A DNA stretch of 64,000 nucleotides from positions 46,807 to 110,806 of the forward strand of contig CAKOMY010000005.1 in assembly GCA_934096815.1 (NCBI GenBank), read 5' to 3'. Positions within the stretch are counted from its first letter, which is position 1; each line of letters begins with the position of its first letter. The DNA is from an uncultured Bacilli bacterium (lineage in GTDB: Bacteria; Bacillota_I; Bacilli_A; RF39; UBA660). Both the position numbers and the translations under genes were made by a program. Shown piece by piece: positions 528-32,566 of this stretch. The notes under the pieces are model-generated. The model did not search any database, was not told the origin of the DNA, and worked only from the letters and a program-made list of their open reading frames with translations.

Positions 528-1199
528 TTAATCTAATAATATTTTAACGATACTATTTTCTTTTACAAAAGTATTTCCTTCTGGCATTTGAGATATTACT
601 TTTTCACCACTTCCTGAGTATTCTATTTTAAATCCTTTTAAAGATTTTTTAGCAGTATCTAAATCCATTCCTGTAACATCTGGTAATTTAATATATTTAG
701 TATCTAGCCATGTATATTCTCTAGCTCTATCTGTTTCTACTTTAGGAATATTTTGACTATCAATAATACTTAGCATTATATTTTTAGCAATAGGTGCAGC
801 AACTGTTCCACCATACTGAGTGATACCTTTAGGATTATCAACTGCAACATAGACTACATATTTAGGATTATCAGCTGGTAAGAAGCCAATAAATGAAACA
901 ATATAATTACCAACCATATATTTACCATCTTTAACTTTTTGGGCTGTTCCGGTTTTACCACCTACACGGTAGTTTTCAATGTAAGCATTTTTACCTGTAC
1001 CGTTTTGGACTACACTTTCAAGGGCAAATCTGACTAAGTTACTAGTTTCTTCAGTTACGATATTTTCTCTAACTACTTGTTTTTTATTAAGAACAATTAC
1101 ATTATTTGTTTCAGGTTCACTTATTGATTTAACTATATAAGGTTTATATAATGTTCCACCATTAATAGCGGCTGAGACTCCCGTTACTTGTTGTAACGG
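528..1199 (-). CDS. spoVD: spoVD-like class B PBP, segment 3 of 3 (C-terminal transpeptidase part with KTG box plus single PASTA domain)
   Basis: The frame is open upstream of the listed 528-917 ORF. Hand translation gives PLQQVTGVSAAINGGTLYKPYIVK...YRVGGKTGTAQKVKDGKYMVGNYIVSFIGFLPADNPKYVVYVAVDNPKG..., then one PASTA-like tail (KLPDVTGM...VKILLD). It matches the SpoVD order after TPIQQV. There is no start codon of its own at the junction. Confidence 0.85.
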   Translation of the reverse strand, partial: PLQQVTGVSAAINGGTLYKPYIVKSISEPETNNVIVLNKKQVVRENIVTEETSNLVRFALESVVQNGTGKNAYIENYRVGGKTGTAQKVKDGKYMVGNYIVSFIGFLPADNPKYVVYVAVDNPKGITQYGGTVAAPIAKNIMLSIIDSQNIPKVETDRAREYTWLDTKYIKLPDVTGMDLDTAKKSLKGFKIEYSGSGEKVISQMPEGNTFVKENSIVKILLD

Positions 1200-2823
1200 G
1201 GTCTAATAAATGAAACTTTTTACCTAAATTATTAGAAAGTGTATTTATACTTTCTCCTGTCTTAATAAAAATATCTAATTTAATTTGTTTATCATTTTGT
1301 TTATGAACTATTATTCTATCTATTAGTTCATTAAATACATCACTATAACATTCATCATCCTCTAAACACTTTTCTAATGCATTTTTAAGTTTCTCTGTTT
1401 TATTTTCTATATAATTTTTATCTTTCTTATTGTTTTTTAATTCATTTATTTTTGTTTGATAAATAGTTAAATTTTCATTTATTAAATCTATTTGTTTCTT
1501 ATAATCATCTTTAGATAAGTATTCTTCCATAACAAGTTCTAGTAATTTATCTTTTTTATTATTTAAAACTAATACTTTAGATTCTAAATTTTTTATTTCT
1601 ATTTCATTATTATTTGTTTCTAAATAATTTTTAGATTCACTTAATATTTCATCAAAGATATTATTTCTTCTTTTAAATAATTTATTAAACATATCTTTAA
1701 ATACTTCATCAAGTTCAAGTTCAAATACTCTAGGATTTGAACACCCTTTTAAACTTTCTTTCCGATATACTTGACATTCCCATACAGGATTGTTTTTTCT
1801 TTTTCCCGCACTTGATCTATGATAAGTTAAATTATGGCAACCACAATATATTTTTCCTGAATATGTATATCTATTTTGAAATACTGCTTTATTAACTGCA
1901 CGATTTGTAAAACTATCTTGTCGTTGCTTTAGTTTAATATTAGTTCGTTCCCATAGTTCTTCAGATACTATTGGTGGAACATTATCATAATCTTTATATG
2001 TTATCCAATCAGATTCATTTAATATTTTCTTTTGTTTTGTACGATAATCTAATACCTTTGATTTATGTCCACAATAATATCCTTTATATTTAGGATTTTC
2101 TATAATTCTTGTAAGGATTGTAGTATCTATTCGTTTACCAGTTTTGCTCTTATATCCTAAACTATATAAATATCTTGATACTTTAGATAATCCATCAGTA
2201 GTATTAGCATATCTATCAAATATTATCTTAATCATTTCTGCTTGTTCTTCATCGATTACTAATTTTCCTTTATCTTTTACATAACCATAAATATTAGAAC
2301 ATCCTAACACTACACCATTATCAATACTTCTCTTCATCCCAAATGAAACTCTTTCAGAAAGTCTTCTTACTTCATCTTGAGCAATTGAAGACATCATTGT
2401 AAGTCTAAGTTCAGAATCAGGTAATATCGTATTAATATTATCATTTAGAAAATATACACCAACACCATTAGATAAAAGTTCTTGTGTATACATAATACTA
2501 TCTAATGTACTTCTTGAAAATCTTGATATTTCTTTAGTTAAGATTAAATCAAACTTATGCCTTTTAGCATCTTCTATCATTCTTAAAAATTCTTCACGTT
2601 TTTTAACTTGTGTACCTGATATTCCTTCATCAATATATGAACCTATAAATTTCCAGTTAGGAACTTTACTAATATAATCATTAAAGAAAGATATTTGACT
2701 TTGTAAAGAATGTAACTGTTCGTCTTTATCAGTCGATACTCTTGCATAAAAACATACTCTTAAATTTAATTCTTGTAGTGGAACACCTTTCATAATATTA
2801 TTCCTAACTGTATATAAGTCCAT
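1162..2823 (-). CDS. Large serine recombinase (resolvase/invertase N-domain + recombinase domain + zinc ribbon + coiled coil)
   Basis: Contains YARVSTDKDEQLHSLQSQ (catalytic Ser motif), LTKEISRFSRS, and Cys-rich CGCHN...WECQ...CSNP. Length is about 553 aa. GGAGG lies 7 nt before ATG 2823. The last ~12 codons and the stop lie beyond the att junction, in spoVD-derived DNA. Confidence 0.9.
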   Translation of the reverse strand: MDLYTVRNNIMKGVPLQELNLRVCFYARVSTDKDEQLHSLQSQISFFNDYISKVPNWKFIGSYIDEGISGTQVKKREEFLRMIEDAKRHKFDLILTKEISRFSRSTLDSIMYTQELLSNGVGVYFLNDNINTILPDSELRLTMMSSIAQDEVRRLSERVSFGMKRSIDNGVVLGCSNIYGYVKDKGKLVIDEEQAEMIKIIFDRYANTTDGLSKVSRYLYSLGYKSKTGKRIDTTILTRIIENPKYKGYYCGHKSKVLDYRTKQKKILNESDWITYKDYDNVPPIVSEELWERTNIKLKQRQDSFTNRAVNKAVFQNRYTYSGKIYCGCHNLTYHRSSAGKRKNNPVWECQVYRKESLKGCSNPRVFELELDEVFKDMFNKLFKRRNNIFDEILSESKNYLETNNNEIEIKNLESKVLVLNNKKDKLLELVMEEYLSKDDYKKQIDLINENLTIYQTKINELKNNKKDKNYIENKTEKLKNALEKCLEDDECYSDVFNELIDRIIVHKQNDKQIKLDIFIKTGESINTLSNNLGKKFHLLDPVTTSNGSLSRY

Positions 2824-2834
2824 AATCACACCTC

Positions 2835-3041
2835 CTAAGTTAATAGTTTATAATTGTTTAAATCATTTATATATTTATCATCTTGTTTTTGCTTTTCAAA
2901 TTCTATTTTATGTAACAATTTATTAATACAAAAATTATACATTCCATCATCAATAGTATTATTTCTTTTTAAATATTCAAGTAATTTAATACTTGTTTCT
3001 ATTTCAATAATTTTTGATGGAACTTTATTTTTATTTTCCAT
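2835..3041 (-). CDS. Small protein directly upstream of and co-oriented with LSR A (possible recombination directionality factor or regulator)
   Basis: 68-aa ORF with a 6-11 nt gap to the LSR gene and an AAGAAAGGA SD. No family recognised. The functional call rests on position only. Confidence 0.3.
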   Translation of the reverse strand: MENKNKVPSKIIEIETSIKLLEYLKRNNTIDDGMYNFCINKLLHKIEFEKQKQDDKYINDLNNYKLLT

Positions 3042-3080
3042 ATACTTTGTCCTTTCTTTTAAGTTTATTTTTATAAAAAC

Positions 3081-3107
3081 TTAAAAAGAACTTAAGGTAT
3101 TAAGTTC
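3081..3107 (-). terminator. Putative intrinsic terminator after the 3209-3643 gene
   Basis: GAACTTAAGGTATTAAGTTC (3088-3107) has 8-bp arms (GAACTTAA/TTAAGTTC) around a 4-nt GGTA loop. On the minus strand it is followed by a T-run (plus-strand AAAAA at 3083-3087). Confidence 0.45.
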
Positions 3108-3208
3108 TACAAAAAATTTGAAAACTTAAATACCACAAAGGACAAAATTAGACTAAATCATCATTTGAAATAAATTAAGTTTTCAAATAACAATTTAGTT
3201 TTTTATTA

Positions 3209-3643
3209 TTAATATTTTATAATTTTTCTAGCTATTTCATATCCATCAATACTATCAGGTAATAATTCATCATGTTCTAGTACTAAGAATAATTCTGCAT
3301 GTGTATCTTTCTTTTCTTTAAATGGTAATTTTTCAAACACTGGTATTAATTCTTTATATTCTTTTGGATAAAGACGATAAAGATTAAAAGTATAGTTACA
3401 ATACTCATTAATCTCAATTACTAAATAACGATAATCAATACTACTCGGATTAAATATTTCTATATCTATACCATCATCAAGTAAATTATGATTAACCTCA
3501 CTTAAACTATTAATTTGATCTCTATCCCATAAGTTAAAAACATAGCTAATAAATTTTAGTTTATCATCTCTATCAAGTTCATTTATTTTTATAACTAATT
3601 CTTTTACTTTATTACTTGTATTTTTTAAATACATATCAAACAC
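3209..3643 (-). CDS. Hypothetical protein (144 aa)
   Basis: Clean ORF with no recognisable motif. Confidence 0.45.
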   Translation of the reverse strand: MFDMYLKNTSNKVKELVIKINELDRDDKLKFISYVFNLWDRDQINSLSEVNHNLLDDGIDIEIFNPSSIDYRYLVIEINEYCNYTFNLYRLYPKEYKELIPVFEKLPFKEKKDTHAELFLVLEHDELLPDSIDGYEIARKIIKY

Positions 3644-3886
3644 ACTCCTTCATCTTCAATTTAAGCCATTTTAAGAAACTTTATTTTTTACATTAATAAC
3701 CGATTAAGATTAATATCAAAGTCTCTTATTTCTTAAATTAGATATCAATAAATTAAAATTTATTTTTAACATTTATCACTTAAAAAAAATAATTTTGCAA
3801 GAGTTTTTTATAAAAAAAATTTAATTTTTGGTTTTATCTATTTTATCTTTGTTTTACTTTATTAATCTTTAAGTTATTAATACTAT

Positions 3887-4216
3887 CTAATTATCTATAT
3901 ATGGTTGTTCAGTGTGTACTTTTTGGGTATATTGTTTTTCATAAACAATATAGTTATATAAAAATTTTCCATCTCTAGAATGTCCTTTTTCAATAATTAA
4001 ATATCTATTTTCTTCTAATTCTTTTAGTGCATTAGTAATAGCTAACTTACTTTCTTTACATAAAAGTCTTAAACCATTAATATTAAAATTCCATACATCT
4101 GGTAAAGATAACATTAAAGTTAATAATCCTTTTGCCTTTAAAGATATATTTTTATCTTCTAAATAAGTGTTATCAATCTTCGTATAATTAGTAAGTTTTT
4201 CTGTTCTTATTACCAT
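3887..4216 (-). CDS. Winged-helix DNA-binding protein (replication-initiator/DnaD-like N-terminal HTH type)
   Basis: YTKIDNTYLEDKNISLKAKGLLTLMLSLPDVWNFNINGL...ITNALKELEENRYLI resembles HTH_36/Rep-N type wHTH proteins of plasmids and phages. Confidence 0.55.
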   Translation of the reverse strand: MVIRTEKLTNYTKIDNTYLEDKNISLKAKGLLTLMLSLPDVWNFNINGLRLLCKESKLAITNALKELEENRYLIIEKGHSRDGKFLYNYIVYEKQYTQKVHTEQPYIDN

Positions 4217-4404
4217 AATATTTTTCCTCCTTCCATTTTAAATTCATAATCTTTTTCATATCTTTCTATATAAGATCTATAACCTAGTTCTAATAAATAG
4301 ATAAACATTTTATTCATACTAAAATTATTTTTAATAGATAAAAGCCTAATTCTAGTTTTTAAATTATCATCTAATCTTAATGTGGTTCTTTCAGTACATC
4401 TCAT
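4210..4404 (-). CDS. Ribbon-helix-helix (CopG/Arc-like) DNA-binding protein
   Basis: MRCTERTTLRLDDNLKTRIRLLSIKNNFSMNKMFIYLLELGY shows an RHH beta-strand plus two-helix pattern. The start was taken at the internal Met (4404) rather than the ORF-track start at 4518. Confidence 0.55.
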   Translation of the reverse strand: MRCTERTTLRLDDNLKTRIRLLSIKNNFSMNKMFIYLLELGYRSYIERYEKDYEFKMEGGKILW

Positions 4405-4510
4405 AAAAATTTTCCTTCCTTTCTTAAAATTATGAGTAGCCAATTTTACTATTTTTAAGCTATTTTTTAAGTAAAAAATACTGCATATTTTTAATGGGCA
4501 TAAGGAAAGC

Positions 4511-4680
4511 GACACCACAAATCTATTTATCTTTTTTAAAGCAAAGATAAAATAGTGGTGTCTTACTATTTTTGCACTTGCAAGAATGACTACTTTTACA
4601 AGAGAAAGTGACTACTCATAATTTTATTTACCTTAATTTCAACAAAAAAAGTGGCTACTAATTTAATGAATAGTGACCAC
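4511..4680. promoter_or_regulatory. Iteron-like direct repeats plus long imperfect hairpin upstream of the RHH/wHTH genes
   Basis: Hairpin GACACCAC (4511-4518) with GTGGTGTC (4556-4563) and inner complementary arms. Direct repeats AATGACTAC (4585), AGTGACTAC (4607), AGTGGCTAC (4649) and AGTGACCAC (4672). Confidence 0.45.
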
Positions 4681-4898
4681 CATATAGAAAATCATTAAAA
4701 ATATGTGCTTCCTTTAGTTTTAAACTTATATTATCACCTCCTAACAAAAAAGAGAAAAGCAAAAGTTTCTCTCTCCATATTTTTTCATATTTTACTATAT
4801 TATACCACTTGACAAATCACGGTCAAGTTTATTTCATGACTAATTTATGTCGTTTTATGTATATTTTATGTTGTTTATAATTTTTAACTATTTTACTA

Positions 4899-5189
4899 TT
4901 AATTTAGATCAGTATCATCAATTTTATCTGACTCATTTTTCATTGTTAATAGAATACTATTAATTTCTATTTTTATTTTATTATATTCATCATTATCAAT
5001 GATATCTTTTACTAAATACTCAGGATCTTCTAAAATATACTCATTAATATAAATTTGTAATTCATTATTTGAGTTATAAATATTATCGGTATATGCCACG
5101 TAATCTTTATTAAATTCATCACTATGATAAGTTAAAATAGCATCATATTCTTTTAGATTACCATCTTTATCAATTGCATTTATTTTCAT
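4899..5189 (-). CDS. DUF1292-like small acidic protein
   Basis: IDKDGNLKEYDAILTYHSDEFNKDYVAYTDN...ELQIYINEY...EDPEYLVKDIIDNDEYNKI follows the DUF1292 pattern. Its start overlaps the stop of the upstream gene. Confidence 0.5.
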   Translation of the reverse strand: MKINAIDKDGNLKEYDAILTYHSDEFNKDYVAYTDNIYNSNNELQIYINEYILEDPEYLVKDIIDNDEYNKIKIEINSILLTMKNESDKIDDTDLN

Positions 5190-6181
5190 TATTTTCCTCT
5201 TCCTTTCACAAAATCTACACTTTCTATTTCTTCATTTTGTTTTAATATAACGCCGCCTCTTTTAACAATAGTATCATCCATTGCTTTGGCTTCATCAAAA
5301 GAATTAACATTAGATAAATCTAATCGTTCACCAACATTTGTGCATATTGTATAAAATTTTCCACCTTTATTTTTAAAATTAGGAATAACGTATATATTAA
5401 CCTTTCTTGTTGGTTCTTCTTTAGAAATTCTTACTTTAATATCTTTATCTAGATTAGGCAATATATTCTTATATCTAGCATACCAAGTAAACATATCAGT
5501 ACCATCAGAAAATCTACTTTCTTGTAGAAAAGGAATATATCCCAAGTTAGAAACTGTATCTAACAATTCTTTAATTCTATCATCAATTGATAAAGCATTT
5601 TTATTGTATGTTTGTAAATGAAGCAATAATTTTTCAACAAACTCAGGATCAAAAGATTCTAATTTATCATAAATAGTTCTGACATCAATTCCATCTTGAA
5701 TAATTACTTCCCCATGATTAGGAATTCTTTTTAACTTTTTAATTATATTAATAAACTCTACTTTTACAAATGACCAAATAGAAGCTAAATCTAGTTCTTG
5801 ATATTCTTTTAAACTATTATGAATAATTGTTTCAAAATTTCTATTTTTTCCTTTATAATTCATATACCATGAATGCATTTCATCATTATCACTAAAATAT
5901 GATTCTCCATATAATGGTATTTGCTTCCTTTTATTAATATAATCAATAAATTCCTGTTCTTTTTCTTCATTAGAGAGTATTTTTAAATCAAAATTACTTA
6001 ATATCTCGTTTATTTCAGTAAAGAAACTCTTATATTTTTCAATCTTAGATATTTTATTAAACCACAACCTCATATCTTCGTTATCACTAAATCTTACTTC
6101 CCATATTCTAGGCATTTTGTGTTCTTTAGTAACAAACTCCTTAAATTCTATTTTGCTTTTTTCAAATAATTCTTTAGACAA
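5189..6181 (-). CDS. Protein made of helicase-associated (HA)-like repeats
   Basis: Four repeats of the type hP..GE.(R/Y)FSD(N/G).DM..W(F/Y): MPRIWEVRFSDNEDMRLWFNK; IPLYGESYFSDNDEMHSWYMNYK; IPNHGEVIIQDGIDVRTIY; IPFLQESRFSDGTDMFTWYARYK. Confidence 0.5.
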   Translation of the reverse strand: MSKELFEKSKIEFKEFVTKEHKMPRIWEVRFSDNEDMRLWFNKISKIEKYKSFFTEINEILSNFDLKILSNEEKEQEFIDYINKRKQIPLYGESYFSDNDEMHSWYMNYKGKNRNFETIIHNSLKEYQELDLASIWSFVKVEFINIIKKLKRIPNHGEVIIQDGIDVRTIYDKLESFDPEFVEKLLLHLQTYNKNALSIDDRIKELLDTVSNLGYIPFLQESRFSDGTDMFTWYARYKNILPNLDKDIKVRISKEEPTRKVNIYVIPNFKNKGGKFYTICTNVGERLDLSNVNSFDEAKAMDDTIVKRGGVILKQNEEIESVDFVKGRGK

Positions 6182-6195
6182 ATTATATACCTCCT

Positions 6196-6408
6196 TTACT
6201 TTCCAAGAAGTCTTTTAAGCTTTATATTTTCTTCTTCTAAAGCTTTAACTTCTTGTGATAATTTAGAAATCTCTCCTCTATATAACTTATTTAAATCTTC
6301 AAGTTCTTCAAGAGGTAATTCATCTAAATTTATAGTTTTATTATCTAAATTCTTTTTATTATTAATCATAGTTTTATATTCTTCTAATTCAACTATTTTA
6401 TCATTCAT
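6196..6408 (-). CDS. Small coiled-coil protein (70 aa)
   Basis: Heptad-rich charged sequence ending EVKALEEENIKLKRLLGK. It sits tightly between the two HA-repeat genes. Confidence 0.4.
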   Translation of the reverse strand: MNDKIVELEEYKTMINNKKNLDNKTINLDELPLEELEDLNKLYRGEISKLSQEVKALEEENIKLKRLLGK

Positions 6409-6409
6409 A

Positions 6410-9286
6410 TTACATAGCCCTCCTATAAGAAGAATTTAATTCTTCAGTTAATTCTTGGTTTTCAATACTTAATTGTTGTTTTCTTAATAATAATGAATCT
6501 CTTAATTCTATTAATGATTTAACATCTTTTTTAGTCTTATCTAATGTATCAATATATTCATCTATAGTTTTAAACTCAGGTTGTTTTTTCTTTAATCTTT
6601 GAATATTTAAATATTCCATTATTCTTTGTTTTGCTATATCATATTTTTTACTAGCATAATTTTCTGAATAAAACAACAAAGGAATTATTTTTCTATCTTT
6701 ATTGTTTGCCCAAAATGAACCTATTTCTCCGTATTCTTTATCTAAAGCAAAATTTCCATTTTCATCTTGTTTATATGTTTTAAATCTTTGATTAGAATGT
6801 GCTTTAAATATTTGATCAGTTCTTTCATTTTCTATATTTATCATATTAATAAATATTTCTAATCTTCTTTTTTTACCTTCATCACTTTGTTGTCCATTAT
6901 ATGTATTCATATAATAATCATCCATTTTATTTTTTAATATTTCATTTTTTTCTATTAGTGGAATTATTTCCATTTTATTTTTGGCCCAAAATGATCCTAT
7001 TTCTCCATACTCCTTATCCAAAATTATATTTCCATTTCTATCATATCTAAATGTTTTGAATTTTTCTTTTGATTGACACTCTAAATATGATGAAAGAACC
7101 TGCTCGTTATCTTGATATTTTAACATATCAATAAATATTTCTATTCGTCTTTTATGACCATCATCGCTTTTTTGCCCACTATATGTATTCATATAATAAT
7201 CATCCATTTTATTTTTTAATATTTCATTTTTTTCTATTAGTGGAATTATTTCCATTTTATTTTTGGCCCAAAATGATCCTATTTCTCCATACTCCTTATC
7301 CAAAATTATATTTCCATTTCTATCATATCTAAATGTTTTGAATTTTTCACTTGATTTACTAGTTAGATAGTTAGCATATTCTTCCAAATTATTTATTTTA
7401 TTTAGCATATCAATAAATACTTCTATTCGTCTTTTATGACCATCCACGCTTTTTTGTCCACTTAATGTATTCATATAATAAAAATCCATCTTATCCCTTA
7501 ATATAATATTTTTTTTTATTAATGGAATTATTTCATTCTTATTACTTGCCCAAAATGATCCTATTTTTCCATATTCTTTATCAATAGAAATACCTTCTTT
7601 CCCACTTTTATATGTTCTAAAATTCAAATTTGAGCCTTGTTTTAATAAATTACTAATTTCTTCTTCGTTTCTTGAATATAAAAGCATATCAGTAAATATT
7701 TCTATTCGTCTTTTATGACCATCCATGCTTTTTTGTCCACTTAATGTATTCATATAATAATCATCTAATTTATTTTTTAATGTTTCATCATTTTTTATTA
7801 TGAATTGAATTTTTTCCTTATTTCTTGTCCAAAATGATCCTATCTTACCATAATTTTTTTGGACATTAATATTGTTAAACTTTATATATGTTTGGAAATT
7901 TGCATTAGAATCACCTTTTAAAAGTTCTGATATTTCTTTTTCAGTGCTAGCCATTCTTAACATATTTACAAAAATTGTTAATCTTCTTTCATTTCCTTCT
8001 TTACTTTTTTGTCCACTTAGAGTATTCATGTAATAATCGTCTAATTTAGATAATAGTGCAAAATCATTTTTAAATGATGTATTTATAATATTTAATATTT
8101 CTTTTTTATTTTTTCTATAAAACGCACCGATTTGACCATACTTCTTGCTTTCAACCCATTCTCCAAATTCATTTTGTTTATATATCGTAAAGTGAATTGT
8201 TGATTTATCTTTAAAAAGTTCTGATAATTCTTTAAGATCTTTTACCCTTTTTATCATTTCAATAAAAATTAATATTTTAGTATTGTGACTTATATTTATG
8301 TTATCAACAAACTTTTGTTTTAAATCTTCATTTATGTTATAAATATCACAATATAATAGGTTACTTTCTTCTATATCTTGGATATTTTCAAAATAATCAT
8401 TTATATTTTTATAGGATTTCATTAATATAGACTTAATATTATTTATTCTTTCTCTTATTTCACTTTCATAATCTTTGTCTTTTAATGATTTTAATAATTT
8501 ATTCATATCAATCTTCAAAGAATATGATAAATAACGTTTTGAATTTTCTCCTAATGCTTCTTTAAATACTGTTTGTACAGCATTAATTACTTTTTCAAGT
8601 TCATCAATATTGCCAAATGTATTTTGTTCTTTTAAATTATTTAATTGGGAATTATATTTTGATATATCTCTATTTTTAGATAATTCATTTATTAAATCAT
8701 TAATTAATTGATAATAGGTTATAGTTTGCTGAATATTTGTATTGGTTTTGTTACTCGTTCTATCTTTTAAATCTATTGATAAATCATCATTCTCTATATA
8801 ATCATCACTATTTAATGGATTATCATAATCATACAATTCTTCTTCAGTGGGTTCTTTAAAAGCTAGAGTATATCCTTCTAACATATATTTAATTAATCTT
8901 TCTAATCTATCATAATTAAAATAATTTTGTTCTTGCCACCATACTAAAAGATTAGCCTCATCACTTTTTGATAAATTTACTTTATTTAAAATAGGAATGC
9001 AATTAAATAATACAGTCCCACCATTACTTGATACTGGTAATATGTGTTCTAAATGAGCAGTAGATAAATCACTTATTATTTCACCACTATAAGGACATCT
9101 ATATGCAACAATATCTTCTTTATTTTCAGTATAATTTCCATTGGAATCAACTCCAAAATATTTAAGAGCAAGAGCATTCATTTGCCTTCTATATAATTCT
9201 GATACTAATCCTCTATCAGCAGTTCTTCTTAAATTTCCATCAACTTGACTATAGCTAATTAAATTTTCTACTAAATATTCATACAT
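6410..9286 (-). CDS. HNH endonuclease fused to six tandem ~94-aa HA-like repeats (958 aa)
   Basis: The N-terminus has YRCPYSGEII...AHLEHILPVSSNGGTVLFNCIPILNKVNLSKSD (HNH-type H..H...N....N, around 9035-9058). Six repeats follow, of the form RR.EIF.DML...F(K/R)T(Y/F)...KEYG.IGSFW..NK..I....N..L..K.D.YYMNT.SGQKS. Confidence 0.75.
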   Translation of the reverse strand: MYEYLVENLISYSQVDGNLRRTADRGLVSELYRRQMNALALKYFGVDSNGNYTENKEDIVAYRCPYSGEIISDLSTAHLEHILPVSSNGGTVLFNCIPILNKVNLSKSDEANLLVWWQEQNYFNYDRLERLIKYMLEGYTLAFKEPTEEELYDYDNPLNSDDYIENDDLSIDLKDRTSNKTNTNIQQTITYYQLINDLINELSKNRDISKYNSQLNNLKEQNTFGNIDELEKVINAVQTVFKEALGENSKRYLSYSLKIDMNKLLKSLKDKDYESEIRERINNIKSILMKSYKNINDYFENIQDIEESNLLYCDIYNINEDLKQKFVDNINISHNTKILIFIEMIKRVKDLKELSELFKDKSTIHFTIYKQNEFGEWVESKKYGQIGAFYRKNKKEILNIINTSFKNDFALLSKLDDYYMNTLSGQKSKEGNERRLTIFVNMLRMASTEKEISELLKGDSNANFQTYIKFNNINVQKNYGKIGSFWTRNKEKIQFIIKNDETLKNKLDDYYMNTLSGQKSMDGHKRRIEIFTDMLLYSRNEEEISNLLKQGSNLNFRTYKSGKEGISIDKEYGKIGSFWASNKNEIIPLIKKNIILRDKMDFYYMNTLSGQKSVDGHKRRIEVFIDMLNKINNLEEYANYLTSKSSEKFKTFRYDRNGNIILDKEYGEIGSFWAKNKMEIIPLIEKNEILKNKMDDYYMNTYSGQKSDDGHKRRIEIFIDMLKYQDNEQVLSSYLECQSKEKFKTFRYDRNGNIILDKEYGEIGSFWAKNKMEIIPLIEKNEILKNKMDDYYMNTYNGQQSDEGKKRRLEIFINMINIENERTDQIFKAHSNQRFKTYKQDENGNFALDKEYGEIGSFWANNKDRKIIPLLFYSENYASKKYDIAKQRIMEYLNIQRLKKKQPEFKTIDEYIDTLDKTKKDVKSLIELRDSLLLRKQQLSIENQELTEELNSSYRRAM
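6665..8290 (-). repeat. Intragenic tandem repeat array (six units, about 282-bp period) inside the HNH gene
   Basis: Protein-level repeats are listed above. At DNA level, 6901-7066 and 7183-7348 are an exact 166-bp direct repeat offset by 282 bp. Confidence 0.85.
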
Positions 9287-24752: not shown

Positions 24753-24813
24753 TTTTTAGGTAAAGCAATGAATTTTAACTATAATTTTGTTAGAAGATAT
24801 TTGGTGATAAATA

Positions 24814-25623: not shown

Positions 25624-25654
25624 AAAGATTGGATAATATATAATATGATACTTA

Positions 25655-26035: not shown

Positions 26036-26193
26036 TATCCTTTACATGATTTGAAACATCCTTTTGGCTGTTTCAAATAAGTTCTGGGTGGTATATATTA
26101 CCATCATGGGCAAAATCAATGGTAGTATAGTCTTCCTAATGATTTAATACAATTTAAGGGATAATTAAAGAACTTAAAAATGTTCTTGTAGTA

Positions 26194-26214
26194 ACATCAA
26201 GATTGCTTGGTGTT
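26194..26214. other. attP-like site of the element-B recombinase family (junction between B1 and B2)
   Basis: ACATCAAGATTGCTTGGTGTT equals the right-end arm of element B (ACACCAAGA, one mismatch), then the TTGC core, then the left-end arm (TTGGTGTT). Confidence 0.65.
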
Positions 26215-26487
26215 CACACAGCAACACTTTAAGACCGAAGAATGCCTTGCACAAGCAAGGTTTTTAGAACTCAAACTTTTTAATGAGTTATCTTCGTTCA
26301 TATCTAAATCTATGTCTATGTCTGGAGTATTAAAGTCATAATATACTTTTAATCTTACATTTTTTCTATCACTATTGATTTTTTCAATCTCTACTTTTTC
26401 AACTAATAAATTAATTAGATATGCTAAATTTTCTTTTATATCTAATTTAGTATTTAAAGAATTTTCAATAGTTTCTAATTTCTTCAT
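26197..26487 (-). pseudogene. C-terminal relic of a third large serine recombinase
   Basis: LINLLVEKVEIEKINSDRKNVRLKVYYDFN aligns with LSR B LMRILVERVEVEKINGDRKHVRLIIYFNFN. Only about 75 homologous residues remain. It is truncated where the ABC ATPase gene ends. Confidence 0.7.
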
Positions 26488-27256
26488 TATTTATCACTTT
26501 ATAATTATTCGTATTTAGTTCTTTTTCTAATAAAACACTTACTTTTTTTGAATCATCTGTTTTAATTACTAGACATTTAGAACATTCTAAATCTAATTCT
26601 TCTTTTGATAATTCCTTAATTAATTTCCCATTTTCAAGAAAACCAAATTCATTTGCTAAAAGGTATAATTCTGATAATATGTGACTAGAAATAAGTAGAG
26701 TTATTCCATTATCTGATAACTTCTTAAATGTGTCTCTAAGTTCACTAATGCCTATTGGATCTAATCCATTTATTGGCTCATCTAATATAACAAAATCAGG
26801 ACTATTTAATATTGCTAATGCTATTCCTAATCTTTGTTTCATTCCTAGTGAAAATGTTTTAACTTTTTTCTTACCTGTGCCTGTTAGATTTACTAACTCT
26901 AATACTTTATTAATTTGGTTTTTATCTACAATACCTCTTTGAATAGTATAATATTTTAAATTATCATAAGCCGATAAATTGGGATAAAACGCTGGATATT
27001 CAATTAATGATCCAACTCTTTTTTTATTATCAAAAAGTTCATCATTTTCACTGCTAGTATTAAACAATTCAAATGTTCCACTTGTAGGAGATGCTAGCGT
27101 TGTTATTATTTTCATTAATGTTGTTTTACCAGCACCATTACGACCAATTAAACCATAAATATCCCCCTTTTTAATTGTTATATTAACATTATCTAATACT
27201 ACATTTTTATTATATTGTTTTGTTAAATTATTTGTTTTTAATACAACTTCTTTCAT
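26465..27256 (-). CDS. ABC transporter ATP-binding protein (BcrA/lantibiotic-export-like), no adjacent permease
   Basis: Walker A GRNGAGKTT, signature FSLGMKQRL, Walker B FVILDEP. Confidence 0.85.
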   Translation of the reverse strand: MKEVVLKTNNLTKQYNKNVVLDNVNITIKKGDIYGLIGRNGAGKTTLMKIITTLASPTSGTFELFNTSSENDELFDNKKRVGSLIEYPAFYPNLSAYDNLKYYTIQRGIVDKNQINKVLELVNLTGTGKKKVKTFSLGMKQRLGIALAILNSPDFVILDEPINGLDPIGISELRDTFKKLSDNGITLLISSHILSELYLLANEFGFLENGKLIKELSKEELDLECSKCLVIKTDDSKKVSVLLEKELNTNNYKVINNEEIRNY

Positions 27257-27328
27257 ATAATCATTCCTTTCAAATTAATTATACAAAAAAAGTGTTAAAA
27301 ATTTCTTAACACAATCCTTAAATTTTCC

Positions 27329-27997
27329 TTAATTTTTGAACTTATATCCAATACTCCATATAGTTTCTATATAGTCTTTGTTTGGATTTGCTTTTTTTAG
27401 TTTATTTCTAATTTTACTTATATGAACATTCAAAGTATTTTCATCAGCAGAATCAATATTGTCCCATACATTATCAAACAAAATACTTTTTGTTACTACT
27501 TGATTATTATTTTCCATAAGTAGTTTTAATATGTCAAATTCTATTTTAGAAAGATTAATATTCTTATTATTACAAACAACACTATATGACTTCTTATTAA
27601 TTTCTACATCATCAATAGTTATTATATCTTTACTATCTGTATTTGTTTTTCTCAAATGAACTTTTATCCTAGCAAGTAATTCGGCATTATTAAATGGTTT
27701 AGTAATATAATCATCAGCACCTAATTCAAATAAATCTAATTTTTTGTCTATATCATTAATTGCTGTAGTTATGATAATAGGAACATCATTAATAGTTTTT
27801 AATTTTTTGATAATTTCTTCACCATTTTTCCCAGGTAACATTAAATCTAAAATTATTAAATCAATTTGTTTATTATGAATCAACAATGCTTCAGTTCCAG
27901 AATATGCAGTACTGACATTATATCCATTATTTGATAATAATTCTTGCAACATTTCATTTATATTTTTATCATCTTCTATTATTAAAACTTTTTTCAT
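27329..27997 (-). CDS. OmpR-family response regulator (no cognate kinase adjacent)
   Basis: REC domain (KVLIIEDD...DLIILDLMLPG) plus a winged-helix trans_reg_C (LNVHISKIRNKL...IETIWSIGYKF). The start was set at Met 27997. Confidence 0.85.
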   Translation of the reverse strand: MKKVLIIEDDKNINEMLQELLSNNGYNVSTAYSGTEALLIHNKQIDLIILDLMLPGKNGEEIIKKLKTINDVPIIITTAINDIDKKLDLFELGADDYITKPFNNAELLARIKVHLRKTNTDSKDIITIDDVEINKKSYSVVCNNKNINLSKIEFDILKLLMENNNQVVTKSILFDNVWDNIDSADENTLNVHISKIRNKLKKANPNKDYIETIWSIGYKFKN

Positions 27998-28091
27998 TAA
28001 AGCACCACCAAACATATTAACTAACAAATATTATACCACAAAAAGTAATTCTATAATTGAACTGTTCCATAGATTGTAATTTTTCAATTAC

Positions 28092-29162
28092 TTACATATC
28101 TTTTTTGTGTTTTATAAATTCAATATTATTTCTTTCTAAATCTTCAATAGTAATATCGCCATATTCTAAAGATGTTGCAACTGTTTCTTGATAACCATTA
28201 GAATAAATAACAATTACATTTTTACTTTTGATACAAGGAAAATAATAAATAAATTCTTTATCTTCATAAAACTGTTCCAATGCTTCAGCACAAGCGATAT
28301 TTTCTTCTTTTACTTTATCGATTATTTTTAAATGAGTAAATGGCTGATTATTTTTATTTATATAATTTTTTTCACTTATCAATACTACTCCAATAACAAG
28401 AATAATAGGTATAACTATAATTATAATCTTCCTAAATAAATCTTTATAATTAATCTTGTTTTTTTCTAAAAGAAATATATTTTTCAATAACTCATTAATA
28501 GATTTTATATGCAATATTTCATACATTATTAAAGAGCCAGATACATTTAAAATTACATCATCAATATCACAAGATCCAGACATAGTAATAAACTGCAATA
28601 ATTCAATTCCAGTCACTATACAAATCATAGTTAATAGAAAAGTTTTAAAATTATTTTGTTTCTTAAATAGTAATGGCAAGAAGAAAGCAAAAGGCATTAA
28701 TGCAATAGCATTACCTAATATATTATAGATAAAAATATAAGGTGCTATATTGCCACTAACAAACTTTGTAACATAAGAGATAATCGTTTTGAAAGGAACA
28801 AGATTAAGTGAATTAGATAAATAGTTTTTAAATATTTCATTGTTCCAATTTAATATATTAAAATTACCTCTGTAAAAGTAATCATCAAATAAAGTAAGTG
28901 TTGAGAGTAGTATTATATATAACAATAACCATATTGAAATATTGATTTTGAAAATTTTCTCTTTATATTTCTTATCAACATATTTAGTTAAGAAGAATCC
29001 CCCTAAATACATTAGCAAACAACTTGCTGATAATAATATTATTCTTCTACTAGGGCTTAAGTGGAATAGTTTATTAAATTGTAAACTAAAATAATAGATT
29101 AATATTATTGCTGACAATAAATAAGTAATTATACTAACTATCAAATTTATCTTCTTTTTCAT
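28092..29162 (-). CDS. VanZ-like membrane protein with C-terminal extra domain
   Basis: NLVPFKTI...NILGNAIALMPFAFFLPLLF...DIDDVILNVSGSLI is the VanZ family pattern. Multiple TM helices. Confidence 0.65.
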   Translation of the reverse strand: MKKKINLIVSIITYLLSAIILIYYFSLQFNKLFHLSPSRRIILLSASCLLMYLGGFFLTKYVDKKYKEKIFKINISIWLLLYIILLSTLTLFDDYFYRGNFNILNWNNEIFKNYLSNSLNLVPFKTIISYVTKFVSGNIAPYIFIYNILGNAIALMPFAFFLPLLFKKQNNFKTFLLTMICIVTGIELLQFITMSGSCDIDDVILNVSGSLIMYEILHIKSINELLKNIFLLEKNKINYKDLFRKIIIIVIPIILVIGVVLISEKNYINKNNQPFTHLKIIDKVKEENIACAEALEQFYEDKEFIYYFPCIKSKNVIVIYSNGYQETVATSLEYGDITIEDLERNNIEFIKHKKDM

Positions 29163-29193
29163 ATTTCATCTCACTTTCAAATTGTTATTTGCA

Positions 29194-29526
29194 TTACTTT
29201 CTATTTAATGATTTGCATATTGAACTTCCAATAAATAATCCAATACTTGCAACAACTAAATACCATACAGAATGAATTAAAGCCGATTCATTATAATAGA
29301 TAAAAACTGATGGTATAAATATTATTGAAGTAAATACTGAATAGAAATATTTAATTTTATTATTAGATAAAATTCCAATAAGTAATGATAATATAAATGT
29401 TCCAACAATTATTAAAAACACCATTCCCATTGCATCTGTTGGTCCTGCAAATAATGGTAAAACATAAAATAATAATAATTGTAAAATACCTATTATAATT
29501 TCTTTAATATTCTTTTTCATAATCAA
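29194..29526 (-). CDS. Small integral membrane protein (110 aa)
   Basis: About four hydrophobic helices. No family recognised. Confidence 0.45.
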   Translation of the reverse strand: MIMKKNIKEIIIGILQLLLFYVLPLFAGPTDAMGMVFLIIVGTFILSLLIGILSNNKIKYFYSVFTSIIFIPSVFIYYNESALIHSVWYLVVASIGLFIGSSICKSLNRK

Positions 29527-29734
29527 TCCTCCATTTCAACAAATTACTATTTTCATAATAGATTTATTACTTAATTATAACATTTTTAGTAAAATAAAAA
29601 TAGTCCTGTACTAGCGACTATTATGTTTTTTACTACCTCACAAAAAGGAACAGTGAGCAGTAAAGTAAATGGTTTATTGTAGTAATATTTATTTACAACA
29701 ACTGTATAATAACATTTTTAGACAATAATTGCAA

Positions 29735-30072
29735 TTACTTTGTATAGTCATTTGATATAAAAAGTTTAGAAAATTCTTTTTGAGCCTCATCCATTTCATC
29801 ATTTATATTTCTAATAGCATTTTCTATTTCTTGTTTATTTTTAAATTTTTGCTTAGAATTAGTATTAGTGAAATATGTTTTTAATATATCTTTTCTTGTT
29901 TGTTTTTTGTTATCAAGATAATACTTTAATATTATTTCTTGAATAATATCATTTTCTTTTATCTTAGTAACATTTTTAGATTCTTTTTTATAATTGTAAT
30001 TAGAATAATTAACAATGGCATTATATATATAATTAAACTTATTTATACAGTTGTTAAATAAAAAAATAGAAT
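29735..30072 (-). pseudogene. Start-less ORF continuing (in another frame) from 30076-30444
   Basis: Hand translation gives LNDSIFLFNNCINKFNYIYNAIVNYSNYNYKK...NAIRNINDEMDEAQKEFSKLFISNDYTK*. There is no ATG until near the end, which suggests a frameshifted gene. Confidence 0.25.
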
Positions 30073-30075
30073 CAT

Positions 30076-30444
30076 TTAACTAAATTCTATCTTTTCAAAA
30101 TCAGATAATTTTTTGTTATATTTTATTTCAATTAACGAAATAGCATTAGATATTATACTTTGTTTCTCTTTTTCTGATAATTTAATCCTTTTTTGTAATT
30201 TATTAAAAACATCGTTCCCAGTAATACCATTATACTTATGATTAGATAATTCATAATTTAAAATTAATAGTTCAGATAATAAACAAGTATAATGATATTT
30301 GAATAAATCTTTTTCTTTTCTACTATAATCTATATCAAATATATTCATGAAATAACCTCCAGTTGCTTGAATGCTACCTCGTTTGAAATAAATTGTCAAA
30401 TCATCATATTGCATAATATTTATAAAATTCATCTTTAAGATCAT
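30076..30444 (-). CDS. Hypothetical protein (start uncertain; overlaps upstream ORF by 41 nt)
   Basis: ORF only. No motif recognised. Confidence 0.3.
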   Translation of the reverse strand: MILKMNFINIMQYDDLTIYFKRGSIQATGGYFMNIFDIDYSRKEKDLFKYHYTCLLSELLILNYELSNHKYNGITGNDVFNKLQKRIKLSEKEKQSIISNAISLIEIKYNKKLSDFEKIEFS

Positions 30445-31033
30445 AAGGATTAATTTTATTTAATTCAAAACTACCTTTTATAAAAGGTAAAACTATATCT
30501 ATATCTGATAGTTCTTTAACTTTGTAAGAAAGACATAATGGCTCATAATTTTTATGAGTAACAATGTTTAAAATATTGTCCTTATTTTTTACTTTTAAAA
30601 CTTTTACATAAATACCATAATTAGTTTTAGAAAGTAGTACAAAATTTCTTTTTTCTTTAAACATTAATCCTTTATTTGTATTATGAAAAGTAATACTTTC
30701 TGATATAGTAGTAATCTTAAATCTTAAGATATTGAACAATCTATCACTTAAACTTTCTTGTGGGTTAGTAAAGTAATTATACATATCTCTAACTATTTTA
30801 ACTGCATAATCACAACTAGTATTATCTTCAATGATTAATGAGTAGCAAATACTATTCCTTTCATACCCCTTACGATCTACTAATTTATTAAAAGAATCAA
30901 ATTGTTTAGCAATCCTATGAAAAGACACTAAAATATTATTTTGATTTATTTGTATTTCAACAATTCTATTATCTAATTTATAGACAACATTTTTTACTAG
31001 GTAATTTCTTATGATGTTTTTACTTATAGCCAT
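30404..31033 (-). CDS. Hypothetical protein; the frame stays open about 150 nt upstream without a start codon
   Basis: ORF track plus hand translation upstream (KSINQISNDKKDNTKKINDKVYNVDT...) back to a TAA that follows a GAGGTGG SD-like site near 31199. This hints at a nonsense or start lesion. Confidence 0.35.
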   Translation of the reverse strand: MAISKNIIRNYLVKNVVYKLDNRIVEIQINQNNILVSFHRIAKQFDSFNKLVDRKGYERNSICYSLIIEDNTSCDYAVKIVRDMYNYFTNPQESLSDRLFNILRFKITTISESITFHNTNKGLMFKEKRNFVLLSKTNYGIYVKVLKVKNKDNILNIVTHKNYEPLCLSYKVKELSDIDIVLPFIKGSFELNKINPYDLKDEFYKYYAI

Positions 31034-31333
31034 TATAGAAGAATCTAATCTATTAAATAAATCTATTGCAATTTGCTTTTTATTATAAATTATATTTTCA
31101 TAGGTATTAGTATCAACATTATAAACTTTATCATTAATCTTTTTTGTATTATCTTTTTTATCATTAGATATTTGATTAATAGATTTTTATATTTTAACCA
31201 CCTCGTCATTTGTATATGAAACATTATTATAGATAAGATTAAAGGTAGAACAAACCTCAATTTGGGTAGAAGTATTTGTGTTATTTAAAGATAGTTCTTC
31301 AAATTTATATGTGTTGCTGTATTGACACCAAGA

Positions 31334-32379
31334 TTGCAAGAGTTTTCGACGACGTTTAAAAAAGTTTCAGAACCATGTCCTCCTCTTTTCCAACATTTAA
31401 TTCTGGCATTTTCAACTTGAATTGATCCACCATCGTAATAATGATCATCAAATAAGTTTACTTTTCCTTCATTTATAGCACTAGATAGAGTTATAATTTT
31501 AAATGTTGAACCGGGTTCATAAGTCATCCATATTGGTAAGTTTCGGTTAATAGTTTCTAAGTTATAATTTTTATAATTATTAGAATCAAAGTTTGGGCGA
31601 GATGACATAGCAAGAACTTCTCCACTATTAGGATCCATTACTAAGGCTAAAGTACTGTCTGGATTATATTTTGTAACTACATTATCTAATTCTTTTTCTA
31701 CTGCTGATTGAATATCTATATCTATTGTTAAAGAAATATTATTGCCATTAACTGGCTCATCATAAATTTCTGATAAATTTAAACGATTTCCTTTACCATC
31801 AGAATAATATAATATACCTCCGTCATTACCTTTTAAATACTTATCATATTCAAGTTCAATTCCAGATAAACCTTGATTATCTATACCAACATATCCTAAA
31901 ACATGAGAAAGTAATGATTCATATGGATAATATCTTTTAGATTCTTTAAGTAAATAGACTCCATCATAATTTAAATTATTTATTTTTTCAGCTACATCAT
32001 ATGATAATCTTCTTCCTTCAGGATGAATTCTTTCAATTGAGGTATGTTTGGTTAAATGGGTATAAATATTTAAATAAGTTGTTCCTAGTATTTCAGATAA
32101 ATTTTTAGCAACTTCTTCTTTATTTTGAATTTGAACCGGAATAACTACTAAAGATGTTGTTGTTAAATTATCAGCAAGAACTATACCATTGCGATCAGTA
32201 ATTTTACCTCTATCAGCAAGAATTGGTAAGTTACGACTCCATAGGCTACCTGCTTTATCTTTTATATTATTTACTTTAAATACTTGAAGATAAAACACTC
32301 TTAATATTATTACTAAGAAAGTTATTAAAACTATTAAATAAACATAAAACATTCTTTTATGAATACGATAATGAAGCAT
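31334..32379 (-). CDS. spoVD: spoVD-like PBP, segment 1 of 3 (membrane anchor, dimerisation domain, SxxK and SxN boxes)
   Basis: TM helix YVYLIVLITFLVIILRV. EPGSTFKIITLSSAINEGKVNLFDDHYYDGGSIQVENARIKCWKRGGHGSETFLNVVENSCN parallels the SpoVD sequence as I recall it. After SCN the listed ORF runs into element DNA (LGVNTATHINLKNYL*). AGGTGA SD precedes ATG 32379. Confidence 0.85.
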
Positions 32380-32566
32380 TAAAATCACCTAATTAAATAT
32401 ATTAAATATAAACATTGTTTAGAATTAAATGTGTTCTTGTAATTTACTTCATGGTAGCATGGATTTATATAATAAAAGATTACCAAATTAAGTAATCTCT
32501 ATTGTTTTAATAATTTAATTAACTCATTAAAATATTACTGTTAAATCAAAAAAGTGGATTGAAAAA

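Follow-up and report, generated by a model that had tools for sequence, protein, structure and literature searches.

A spoVD-type gene split into three collinear pieces by large serine recombinase elements at two sites in an uncultured Bacilli genome

SpoVD is needed for cortex synthesis in the mother cell, the compartment in which skin (inserted in sigK) and SPβ (inserted in spsM) are excised by large serine recombinases (LSRs). The intervening elements described so far interrupt sigK, spsM, spoVFB, spoVR, gerE and yabG (PMC4191935; PMC5595907; PMC10747680; bioRxiv 10.1101/2022.02.25.481979). Excision of skin depends on SpoIVCA in B. subtilis and on CD1231 together with the directionality factor CD1234 in C. 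difficile, and that of SPβ on SprA and SprB; in these systems a promoter read by a sporulation sigma factor controls the recombinase or the directionality factor, and the element stays in the spore germline (PMC5025042; PMC4191935; PMC5499854). The gin element, which interrupts gerE in Bacillus cereus ATCC 10987, is a non-phage element excised in sporulation by the LSR GirC and the 42-amino-acid (aa) protein GirX, as was shown in vivo and in vitro (PMC5595907). Full-text literature searches found no report of an element intervening in spoVD, in line with the original prediction for the locus described here, which likewise knew of none. The sole spoVD match concerned ICEBs1, an element that uses a tyrosine recombinase. 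It had inserted at secondary sites in spoVD of engineered laboratory B. subtilis (PMC3715440). The DNA considered here is a stretch of 64,000 nucleotides (nt) of contig CAKOMY010000005.1 from an uncultured Bacilli bacterium (hereafter the window). It carries a spoVD gene that is, almost certainly, split by three LSR elements at two sites, A and B; the recombinase families involved repeatedly target conserved catalytic-motif codons, and precise joining at the shared cores gives back a naturally occurring allele.

The spoVD of the window consists of three in-frame, collinear pieces on the minus strand (Table 1). Translation of the first gives the transmembrane anchor, STFK at aa 291 and SCN at aa 347-349; the second reads NPGFVVLGQRLG...GQGISVTP, and the third contains KTGT at aa 494 followed by a PASTA domain. 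Joined with each shared core counted once, the pieces add up to 1046+198+664 = 1908 nt, a single open reading frame (ORF) of 635 codons and a stop. The joined protein scored 715.6 bits against the NCBIfam model TIGR02214 (spoVD_pbp), which has a curated equivalog cutoff of 688; the runner-up family, pbp2_mrdA, reached 367.9 bits, below its own cutoff of 455, and SpoVD is well ahead of both PBP2 and FtsI. A search of about 5.8 billion proteins retrieved an uninterrupted 635-aa protein (P0001) that is 99.8% identical to the joined product and is encoded on at least six public contigs, along with many relatives of 634-635 aa. The domains recorded for P0001 are PF03717 (PBP_dimer), PF00905 (Transpeptidase) and one PF03793 (PASTA), which together with the SxxK, SxN and KTG motifs make up the composition of a SpoVD. 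Intact alleles of the same length also occur in metagenome contigs and metagenome-assembled genomes (MAGs), with 98-99% nucleotide identity in L001-L005 and empty sites seen in L001-L013, and intact and split alleles stand side by side among closely related MAGs. BLASTN tiled the intact L001 exactly onto the window, positions 5845-7046 falling on 32536-31334, 7043-7244 on 12069-11868 and 7243-7910 on 1193-526; successive tiles share 4 nt and then 2 nt, which are the cores GCAA and CA. The insertions thus lie inside a coding sequence, and their precise excision is predicted to restore a frame that matches natural intact alleles at 98-99% of nucleotides, as is characteristic of sporulation gene-intervening elements. 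Profile scans of the window proteins found no other penicillin-binding protein (PBP) within its 64 kb. The original prediction had proposed three minus-strand fragments in the order of SpoVD, and translation, motifs and the TIGR02214 score agree with it. Its total of 1908 nt in one frame also stands, but the apportionment between the second and third segments (1046+192+670) had to be corrected to the values given above. The uninterrupted ortholog that it anticipated exists, and the possibility it had raised that the fragments fail to rebuild a contiguous PBP is contradicted by the tiling of L001 across all three of them.

At site A, attB reads ...GAAAACTCTTGCAACCCCGGTTTTG..., attL ...TCTTGCAA/TCTTGGTGTCAATAC... 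and attR ...GGTAACACCAAGCAA/CCCCGG..., with GCAA as the shared core. The two arms of the element are inverted repeats of each other around four nucleotides, CAAT, which places the central dinucleotide on AA, bases 1-2 of the Asn349 codon of the SxN motif. The interval between segments 1 and 2 is 19,268 bp long and is composed of two tandem elements (12066-31334), 2a and 2b, that meet at an internal att-like junction centred at 26204-26203. The existence of a relic, and with it of a triple arrangement, had been suspected beforehand, and element 2a is this third element. A location of the relic upstream of spoVD, as a third recombinase-bearing insertion, was considered and rejected, since the insertion found there (32537-34166) is an AbiEi/AbiEii pair without a recombinase and the relic sits inside what had been taken for a single second element.

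The cargo of element 2a comprises a VanZ-like protein, an OmpR-type response regulator and an ABC ATPase (Pfam). A counterpart occurs in MAG locus L076 (GTDB representative CAKOJQ01, Hadza gut), which matches window 35259-27593 at 98.3% over 7.7 kb. This span runs from the upstream gene through an AbiE cassette, segment 1 and attL to a point ~3.7 kb inside 2a. L076 carries a single 6-kb element at site A and has site B empty. That element has its own 577-aa LSR and ends ...GTGTTGCTGTGTGAACACCAAG/CAA/CCCCGG, joined straight to a segment 2 that runs into segment 3. In the window, the right end of 2a is found at 26240-26203 and is followed by TCTTGATGTTACTACAAGAAC instead of spoVD. The left half of this hybrid att is the right end of the L076 element, and the other half pairs, as an inverted repeat, with the arm adjoining segment 2. 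The attP sites of 2a and 2b are each an imperfect inverted repeat about AA, and direct comparison of their P' arms showed agreement at 17/22 positions.

Element 2b encodes LSR2, an 82-aa ORF, two surface-repeat proteins of 1514 and 403 aa, a LuxR-type response regulator on the plus strand, histidine-kinase-like proteins and a sortase fragment. The LSR2 gene stops (AGC TGA) where relatives with 96-97% identity read on across the att core to 592 aa, and its three domains are kept. The stretch between the 82-aa ORF and the start of LSR2 (13834-13874, AGTTATCTTGCTTTTTAAGAACAT) is strongly conserved in the LSR2 family and resembles the 2b P' arm (TCTTGATGTTACTACAAGAACAT); to judge from this likeness, it could be a recombinase binding or autoregulatory site. 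The genes of the 1514-aa and 403-aa proteins share an identical 26-nt upstream block, TTTTTCATCTATTAAAGAAAGTGAAA (window 19605-19675 and 21198-21270), and adjoin the divergent gene of the LuxR-type regulator (21368-22006); the shared block and the neighbouring regulator suggest that the surface-repeat genes are co-regulated cargo.

Site B lies 198 nt downstream of site A. Its shared core, CA, is found at 11869-11868 and 1193-1192 and forms the first two bases of the Gln415 codon (GQG..TPxQ). The intact allele reads GTAACGCCTATTCA/ACAAGTAACG (also written GTAACGCCTATTCA/ACAAGTAACGGG; predicted attB GTAACGCCTATTCAACAAGTAACGG), attL ...CCTATTCA/CCTTACTGTCTAATAAATGA... and attR ...TCATTTATTAGACCCCGTTACA/ACAAGT.... 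The reconstructed attP1, TCATTTATTAGAC-CCCGTTA-CA-CCTTACT-GTCTAATAAATGA (junction form TTATTAGACCCCGTTACACCTTACTGTCTAATAA), is a perfect 13-bp inverted repeat with spacing 7+2+7, symmetric about CA. This junction had been placed at 11874/1199, 6 nt away. The earlier position was abandoned, because both the sequence of the intact allele and the symmetric attP point to a crossover on CA, and residue 414 is Ile, not Leu. The six nucleotides concerned (1199-1194, CCGTTA) are element DNA that mimics host codons, the element end CCGTTACA resembling the host sequence CCTATTCA.

Element 1, which occupies site B, encodes LSR1, a 68-aa ORF, a 144-aa protein, a Rep-N/DnaD-like 109-aa protein (replication-initiator N-terminal helix-turn-helix, HTH), an Arc-like 102-aa protein, further proteins of 96, 330 and 70 aa, a 958-aa protein with an HNH/endonuclease-VII-like N-terminus, an mTERF-like protein and an AbiEii/AbiEi pair (9759-11245). 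The two genes of this pair are adjacent, as expected of an AbiE system, and were recognised by PADLOC with 285.8 bits (AbiEii, 9759-10610) and 215.1 bits (AbiEi, 10610-11245). Both recombinase genes had been described as apparently intact, which agrees with the presence of all three Pfam domains in each. The domain set, the shared central dinucleotides, the inverted-repeat attP arms and the empty attB sites identify the enzymes as large serine recombinases. LSR1 and LSR2 are ~40% identical and their att arms are unrelated. The recombinase ORFs of both families normally span the att core (window 1162-1193, 12066-12151 and 26197-26205; L086 5677-5779), so that the final codons are host-encoded and altered on excision: LSR1 has 553 aa in the integrated form and 579 aa are predicted from the circle, and family members have 549, 553 or 559 aa depending on the host. 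Elsewhere in element 1, upstream of the Arc-like and Rep-like genes, a strong candidate promoter of the vegetative type (TTGACC-N17-TATAAT, window 4780-4850, minus strand) overlaps a palindrome, TTGACCGTGATTTGTCAA; the arrangement resembles a repressor-controlled module apart from the LSR1 operon.

The survey of other genomes showed that both recombinase families are widespread and spoVD-specific, and that the window is one case of a recurrent pattern. The LSR1 family comprises more than 120 homolog clusters at 90% identity or above. Among 78 metagenome loci, 53 were evaluable, that is, they had an LSR1-family gene of at least 70% identity and sufficient downstream DNA. In 50 of these 53, the recombinase adjoins a spoVD 3' fragment that begins at the same codon (aa 412-419). 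Of these 50 fragments, 47 reach the C-terminus in one alignment; the 50 represent 33 host clusters at 90% aa identity and 13 at 70%. In every context inspected, a Transpeptidase+PASTA fragment of 167-207 aa came after the LSR. The attL junctions have one identical form (...CA/CCTTACTGTCTAATAAATGATAC) in hosts whose SpoVD is 44-72% identical to that of the window. Locus L115 has a near-identical element 1 (AbiEi 100%, 330-aa protein 97%) in a host with a SpoVD of 61-63% identity, which demonstrates horizontal transfer. For the LSR2 family (63-97% identity), the spoVD fragment ends or starts at aa 348-351 wherever the recombinase-side flank is present, in either orientation. A third family is represented by L153 3173-6421, a 3.2-kb element with a 578-aa LSR that is 41-42% identical to LSR1 and LSR2; its crossover, TTT AA/A, falls on the Lys294 codon of SxxK (site C). 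Positions 1-2 of the three target codons, K294, N349 and Q415, are ~99% conserved across 79 genomes, and these two bases are the crossover dinucleotide in each case. With the crossover on positions 1-2 of an invariant catalytic codon, attB is conserved in diverse spore-former-like hosts, and it lies in a gene that vegetative growth does not require. Double splits of spoVD were found in four further independent contig groups, with sites A and B occupied in L117, L104 and L088/L090, and sites C and B in L153. The double or triple intervening-element arrangement initially proposed holds in its structure, with three in-frame pieces, a tandem relic and a restored allele that exists intact, and it is not a single curiosity.

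Several loci depart from the common pattern. In L087 and L179, LSR2-family elements occupy the same SxN codon but are reversed, and their recombinase gene stands beside the spoVD 5' fragment; as AA is non-palindromic, they presumably carry attP inverted relative to the recombinase gene. At L139 (~11590-11700; contig ERZ1643249 NODE-931, 30.9 kb, 158x), what follows an LSR1-family gene of 85% identity is not spoVD but its own P' arm, GTCTAATAAATGATACC. The junction has the form of an attP with a different 15-nt inner spacer, and coverage is ~12-fold above that of another LSR1-family contig of the same sample. The contig may represent a relative that is free or replicating, or that has a different target. 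In L169 and L171, an LSR remnant (aa 327-551 only) accompanies an LSR1-type P arm and CA core joined to non-spoVD DNA (CA/ACTTATGATGCAGG), which looks like a degenerate copy at a secondary site.

With regard to the nature of the elements, Pfam gave no match to phage structural, packaging or lysis genes in elements 1, 2a and 2b. Comparison of eight element 1 ORFs and two small 2b ORFs with PHROGs yielded matches limited to the Rep-N/DnaD-like HTH, the Arc-like repressor and the endonuclease-VII-like N-terminus. LSR1 had one 21-aa match in IMG/VR as against 82 matches in metagenome contigs. A prophage origin was rejected on these grounds, given that Pfam and PHROGs returned no phage structural genes and that the LSR1 family is essentially absent from IMG/VR. 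No coupling protein, relaxase or type IV secretion system (T4SS) gene was detected by Pfam in the three elements of the window, and PADLOC found no defence system besides AbiE in the 10 element ORFs scanned, which included those of the 330-aa and 958-aa proteins of element 1.

Members of all three recombinase families have a small ORF directly upstream of the recombinase gene (82, 68 and 51 aa), none of which has a family match. The 82-aa ORF is present in every LSR2-family locus examined. The 68-aa ORF was found in 9 of 10 LSR1-family loci checked (L146 being the one without detection), among them the minimal elements of L117 and L153. The site-C locus L153 has the 51-aa ORF upstream of its recombinase, together with a CATACACT motif. 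BLASTP detected weak similarity between the 82-aa and 51-aa products (E = 2e-4) and none between the 68-aa and 82-aa products. By analogy with GirX, SprB and CD1234, these ORFs are candidate directionality factors (PMC5595907; PMC4191935; PMC5025042). The motif CATAnnnT is kept upstream of the small ORF in 7/7 distinct LSR2-family regions and in L153, 5-13 nt before the ribosome-binding site, and the flanks diverge around it. It occurs at the same spacing before cotE in the window and, in seven related genomes, before spoVD; of the 32 minus-strand upstream regions in window 1-36 kb, those of the 82-aa ORF and cotE are the only two to have it. In B. subtilis, a -10 element of the CATA type is a hallmark of promoters read by sporulation sigma factors, sigma-E and sigma-K among them. 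With this knowledge of B. subtilis motifs used as a lead and not as proof, the 82-aa/LSR2 operon appears to be driven by a promoter of the sporulation-sigma type. The 68-aa/LSR1 operon is preceded by a terminator hairpin and a short AT-rich spacer; a promoter of the same type was rejected for it, because an alignment of 50 distinct upstream regions showed no conserved CATA-type motif.

These observations are best explained if three LSR elements interrupt spoVD and the gene is rebuilt by two orthogonal reactions, of which the mother cell is the most likely place, a reading to which a probability of roughly 0.55 can be given. Two independent attL x attR recombinations would be required. LSR2 would act on the outer sites of the tandem, and it could plausibly excise 2a and 2b together, the whole 19.3 kb in one reaction, because their P' arms match at most positions; LSR1 would excise element 1. 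Each recombinase would probably be aided by the small ORF directly upstream as its directionality factor, and the LSR2 operon would be fired from the CATAnnnT promoter. As is the case for skin, SPβ and gin, the mother cell, which is terminally differentiated, would be the most likely place of excision, and the spore would retain the elements. For the coupling of excision to sporulation taken by itself, the odds are about even or slightly better. The broader proposal is more tentative and falls somewhat short of even odds: spoVD would be a multi-lock landing pad for at least three orthogonal LSR families, each of which evolved to recombine at positions 1-2 of an invariant catalytic codon (Lys of SxxK, Asn of SxN or Gln of TPxQ), and which stack in the gene both at separate sites and as tandem arrays. 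Cortex synthesis would hinge on several mother-cell excisions, each powered by an operon of small ORF and recombinase under a sporulation sigma factor, and these would form a combinatorial developmental switch built on non-phage elements across uncultured gut spore-formers.

A number of points weigh against developmental excision. LSR2 is without the 32 C-terminal residues of its closest relatives, and the outer attL at site A bears the P' arm of the relic and not that of LSR2's own element, for which reason LSR2 may use this site inefficiently. The -35 region of the putative 82-aa/LSR2 promoter fits no known consensus, and the lack of a CATA-type motif in the 50 aligned regions upstream of 68-aa/LSR1 counts in the same direction. 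The host is known from MAGs and metagenome contigs alone. Outside the window, most LSR2-family relatives encode a coupling protein of the TraG/VirD4 type together with a DNA methyltransferase, which is how conjugative or mobilisable elements look, so these relatives may be ordinary mobile elements that excise in vegetative cells. The LSRs are 84-94% identical across distant hosts, which indicates recent horizontal spread, and intact frames may accordingly reflect recency instead of selection. Some split alleles are decaying (L124, L138, L166 and L178).

Several of these points would be expected if ordinary mobile insertions simply inactivated spoVD. The conserved codons would then be a safe, vegetatively dispensable site, excision would be sporadic and serve transfer, and carriers would be cortex-less or asporogenous, or reliant on rare spontaneous excision. 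Besides the T4SS coupling protein and methyltransferase of the LSR2-family relatives, the near-identical elements in distant hosts, the lack of a sporulation-type promoter for LSR1 and the decayed alleles, the coexistence of intact and split alleles among close MAGs fits this explanation, and gut Firmicutes adapted to a host have commonly lost sporulation. Against it stand the 47 of 50 uninterrupted 3' fragments, the persistence of recombinase and partner ORF in minimal 3-4-kb elements without transfer genes (L117 and L153), the CATA-type motif before the small ORF, which matches the promoter regions of cotE and spoVD, and the lack of detectable conjugation genes in the elements of the window. 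The split alleles also show a low ratio of non-synonymous to synonymous rates (dN/dS). The spoVD genes of the window and L076 differ by 32 synonymous and 6 non-synonymous substitutions (dN/dS 0.05), despite the 98.3% match across attL and ~3.7 kb of the relic, and pairs of split alleles in other hosts gave dN/dS of 0.08-0.28 when computed with a looser gap filter than strict no-gap. The strength of this argument is reduced by the uneven synonymous rate (dS) along spoVD between the window and L076 (0.023 versus 0.16 between segments), which suggests recombination with other alleles, and by the horizontal spread of the elements, as a result of which part of the spoVD divergence predates insertion. 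The substitutions unique to the spoVD branch of the window number 3, all synonymous, too few to decide. Taken together, inactivation by ordinary insertions seems unlikely, if far from negligible, and restoration of spoVD in the mother cell is preferred.

Considerably less probable is that the interrupted gene is a redundant class B PBP that is not specific to sporulation in this host, its interruption being devoid of developmental meaning. Class B PBPs are paralogous, and the TIGR02214 cutoff was cleared narrowly, but the SpoVD equivalog is the best match, well ahead of PBP2 and FtsI. In other hosts the target gene adjoins mraY and ftsW/spoVE, like division PBPs, but spoVD of B. subtilis also lies in the division and cell wall (dcw) cluster. 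The single C-terminal PASTA, the proximity of cotE and the CATA-type motif before spoVD in related genomes likewise speak for a sporulation gene. Since its interruption is tolerated in dozens of lineages, the gene cannot be an essential division PBP. Functional overlap of SpoVD-type PBPs in C. difficile favours redundancy (PMC12713402). Finally, a chimeric contig joined through repeated att-like sequences has a negligible probability: the assembly is possibly metagenomic and related elements have similar ends, but all junctions show the expected attL/attR half-site structure, the independent MAG L076 runs across the site A attL, and the same junctions occur in dozens of independent contigs.

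The genomes closest to the host are MAGs of uncultured gut bacteria that were deposited under the names "Bacilli", "Tenericutes" or "Erysipelotrichaceae". The window has a GC content of 24%, and the rest of it carries housekeeping genes (FtsEX, M23 peptidase, WhiA, GpsA, GAPDH and RecD2). The proximity of cotE, put beforehand at 3 kb, was corroborated by PF10628. The surroundings of spoVD are strain-variable on both sides. Upstream, 38 bp from the 3' end of the 361-aa gene are imperfectly duplicated and flank the insertion at 32537-34166, which carries a second AbiEi/AbiEii pair (AbiEi 33419-34012, AbiEii 32567-33418) and no recombinase; the L076 copy of this cassette has ~73% nucleotide identity to the AbiE pair of element 1. 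Downstream of the spoVD stop, window 1-525 has no match to L001-L005, which have MerR and ABC exporters there, and matches MAG locus L013; an ORF that starts at 437 and runs off the window has no Pfam match. The otherwise intact MAG locus L007 (6047-8175) has an insertion of another kind, at the 5' end of the gene, where the spoVD promoter region and the first ~95 nt of the coding sequence are duplicated (6047-6296 and again from 8175), the duplicates being separated by ~1.9 kb of unrelated DNA.

Table 1. Coordinates of spoVD, the inserted elements and associated features in the window.
Feature	Position	Strand	Description	Evidence
spoVD 5' segment	31334..32379	-	aa 1-348 and AA (bases 1-2 of Asn349 codon, SxN motif); ends at attL, site A	Translation, BLASTN, junction reading
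spoVD middle segment	11868..12067	-	Last base of Asn349 codon to CA (first two bases of Gln415 codon); 198 nt, each shared core counted once	99% to L001 7043-7244
spoVD 3' segment	528..1193	-	Gln415 onward, KTGT and PASTA, to stop	L001 7243-7910 = window 1193-526
Element 2a, relic	26204..31333	-	~5.1 kb; cognate inverted-repeat ends CTTGGTGT..ACAGCAACAC; recombinase gene almost wholly lost	Pfam, L076 comparison
Element 2a recombinase remnant	26197..26487	-	Last 290 nt, 96-aa ORF, reads across att core	99% to L076 13562-13851, 3' end of intact 577-aa LSR
Internal hybrid att	26180..26230	-	P arm of 2a, central AA 26204-26203, P' arm of 2b: GTGTTGCTGTGTGAACACCAAG-CAA-TCTTGATGTTACTACAAGAAC	
Element 2b	12068..26202	-	~14.1 kb, carries LSR2	Pfam, PHROGs, att analysis
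LSR2	12151..13833	-	560-aa large serine recombinase	Resolvase, Recombinase and Zn_ribbon_recom, all above gathering score
82-aa ORF	13875..14123	-	Directly upstream of LSR2; candidate directionality factor	Present in every LSR2-family locus examined
-10-like motif	14143..14150	-	CATATAGT, 27 nt upstream of 82-aa ORF start codon	
Element 1	1194..11867	-	10,676 bp, carries LSR1	
LSR1	1162..2823	-	553-aa large serine recombinase; last 9 codons and stop in spoVD DNA past crossover	Resolvase, Recombinase and Zn_ribbon_recom above gathering score
68-aa ORF	2835..3041	-	Immediately upstream of LSR1; candidate directionality factor	9/10 LSR1-family loci checked
cotE	35327-35848		2.9 kb upstream of spoVD	PF10628, E = 8e-43
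AbiE-cassette insertion	32537-34166		1.63 kb, between upstream 361-aa gene and spoVD	Absent from intact L001-L005

If excision is coupled to sporulation, spoVD joins sigK, spsM, spoVFB, spoVR, gerE and yabG as a developmentally rearranged gene, and such rearrangement, so far a matter of a few cultured strains of Bacillus and Clostridium, would also be found in many uncultured lineages of the gut, with 33 host clusters for a single recombinase family. We know of no other sporulation gene that needs two orthogonal recombinase systems for its restoration. Apart from the developmental question, the locus illustrates how a broad host range can be achieved by anchoring the crossover dinucleotide on invariant catalytic codons of a vegetatively dispensable gene. 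It also provides three natural, mutually orthogonal sets of LSR, attP and attB with candidate directionality factors, which may serve genome engineering. Surveys of sporulation genes in MAGs will miscall a split spoVD as missing or as a pseudogene.

Developmental excision is also known from heterocyst genes of cyanobacteria, where elements in nifD, fdxN and hupL are removed, XisF is a serine recombinase and some genes carry several elements. The proposed excision at spoVD would likewise restore a gene in connection with terminal differentiation; phylum and programme are different, and the LSRs match the XisF model weakly (92-93 bits, with a cutoff of 375). The arrangement of 2a and 2b at one site, with a hybrid att between them and one member lacking a recombinase, is similar to accreted tandem arrays such as an integrative and conjugative element with a cis-mobilisable relic, or composite SCCmec (PMC5595907). 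In contrast to these, 2a and 2b lie inside a coding sequence that needs recombination of the outer sites, and no conjugation genes were detected in the window copies. As in the case of skin and SPβ, LSR-bounded elements split a sporulation gene. Skin and SPβ, however, are prophages or their remnants and single insertions, whereas the spoVD elements are without phage genes and essentially absent from IMG/VR, and their regulation is suggested by the conserved CATA-type motif alone. The closest analogue is gin, also a non-phage element in a mother-cell sporulation gene, with an LSR and a very small ORF, short shared cores, in-frame reconstitution and a composite structure with more than one recombinase gene (PMC5595907). 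The differences from gin are that the target is spoVD and not gerE, that two orthogonal systems occupy two sites of one gene together with a tandem relic, that the hosts are uncultured gut Bacilli with recombinase families spread over many host taxa, and that excision and its timing, demonstrated for gin, are here predicted from sequence. In conclusion, what is apparently new at this locus is spoVD as a target, the combination of two orthogonal systems with a relic, the convergence of at least three families on codon positions 1-2 and the broad distribution among uncultured gut bacteria.

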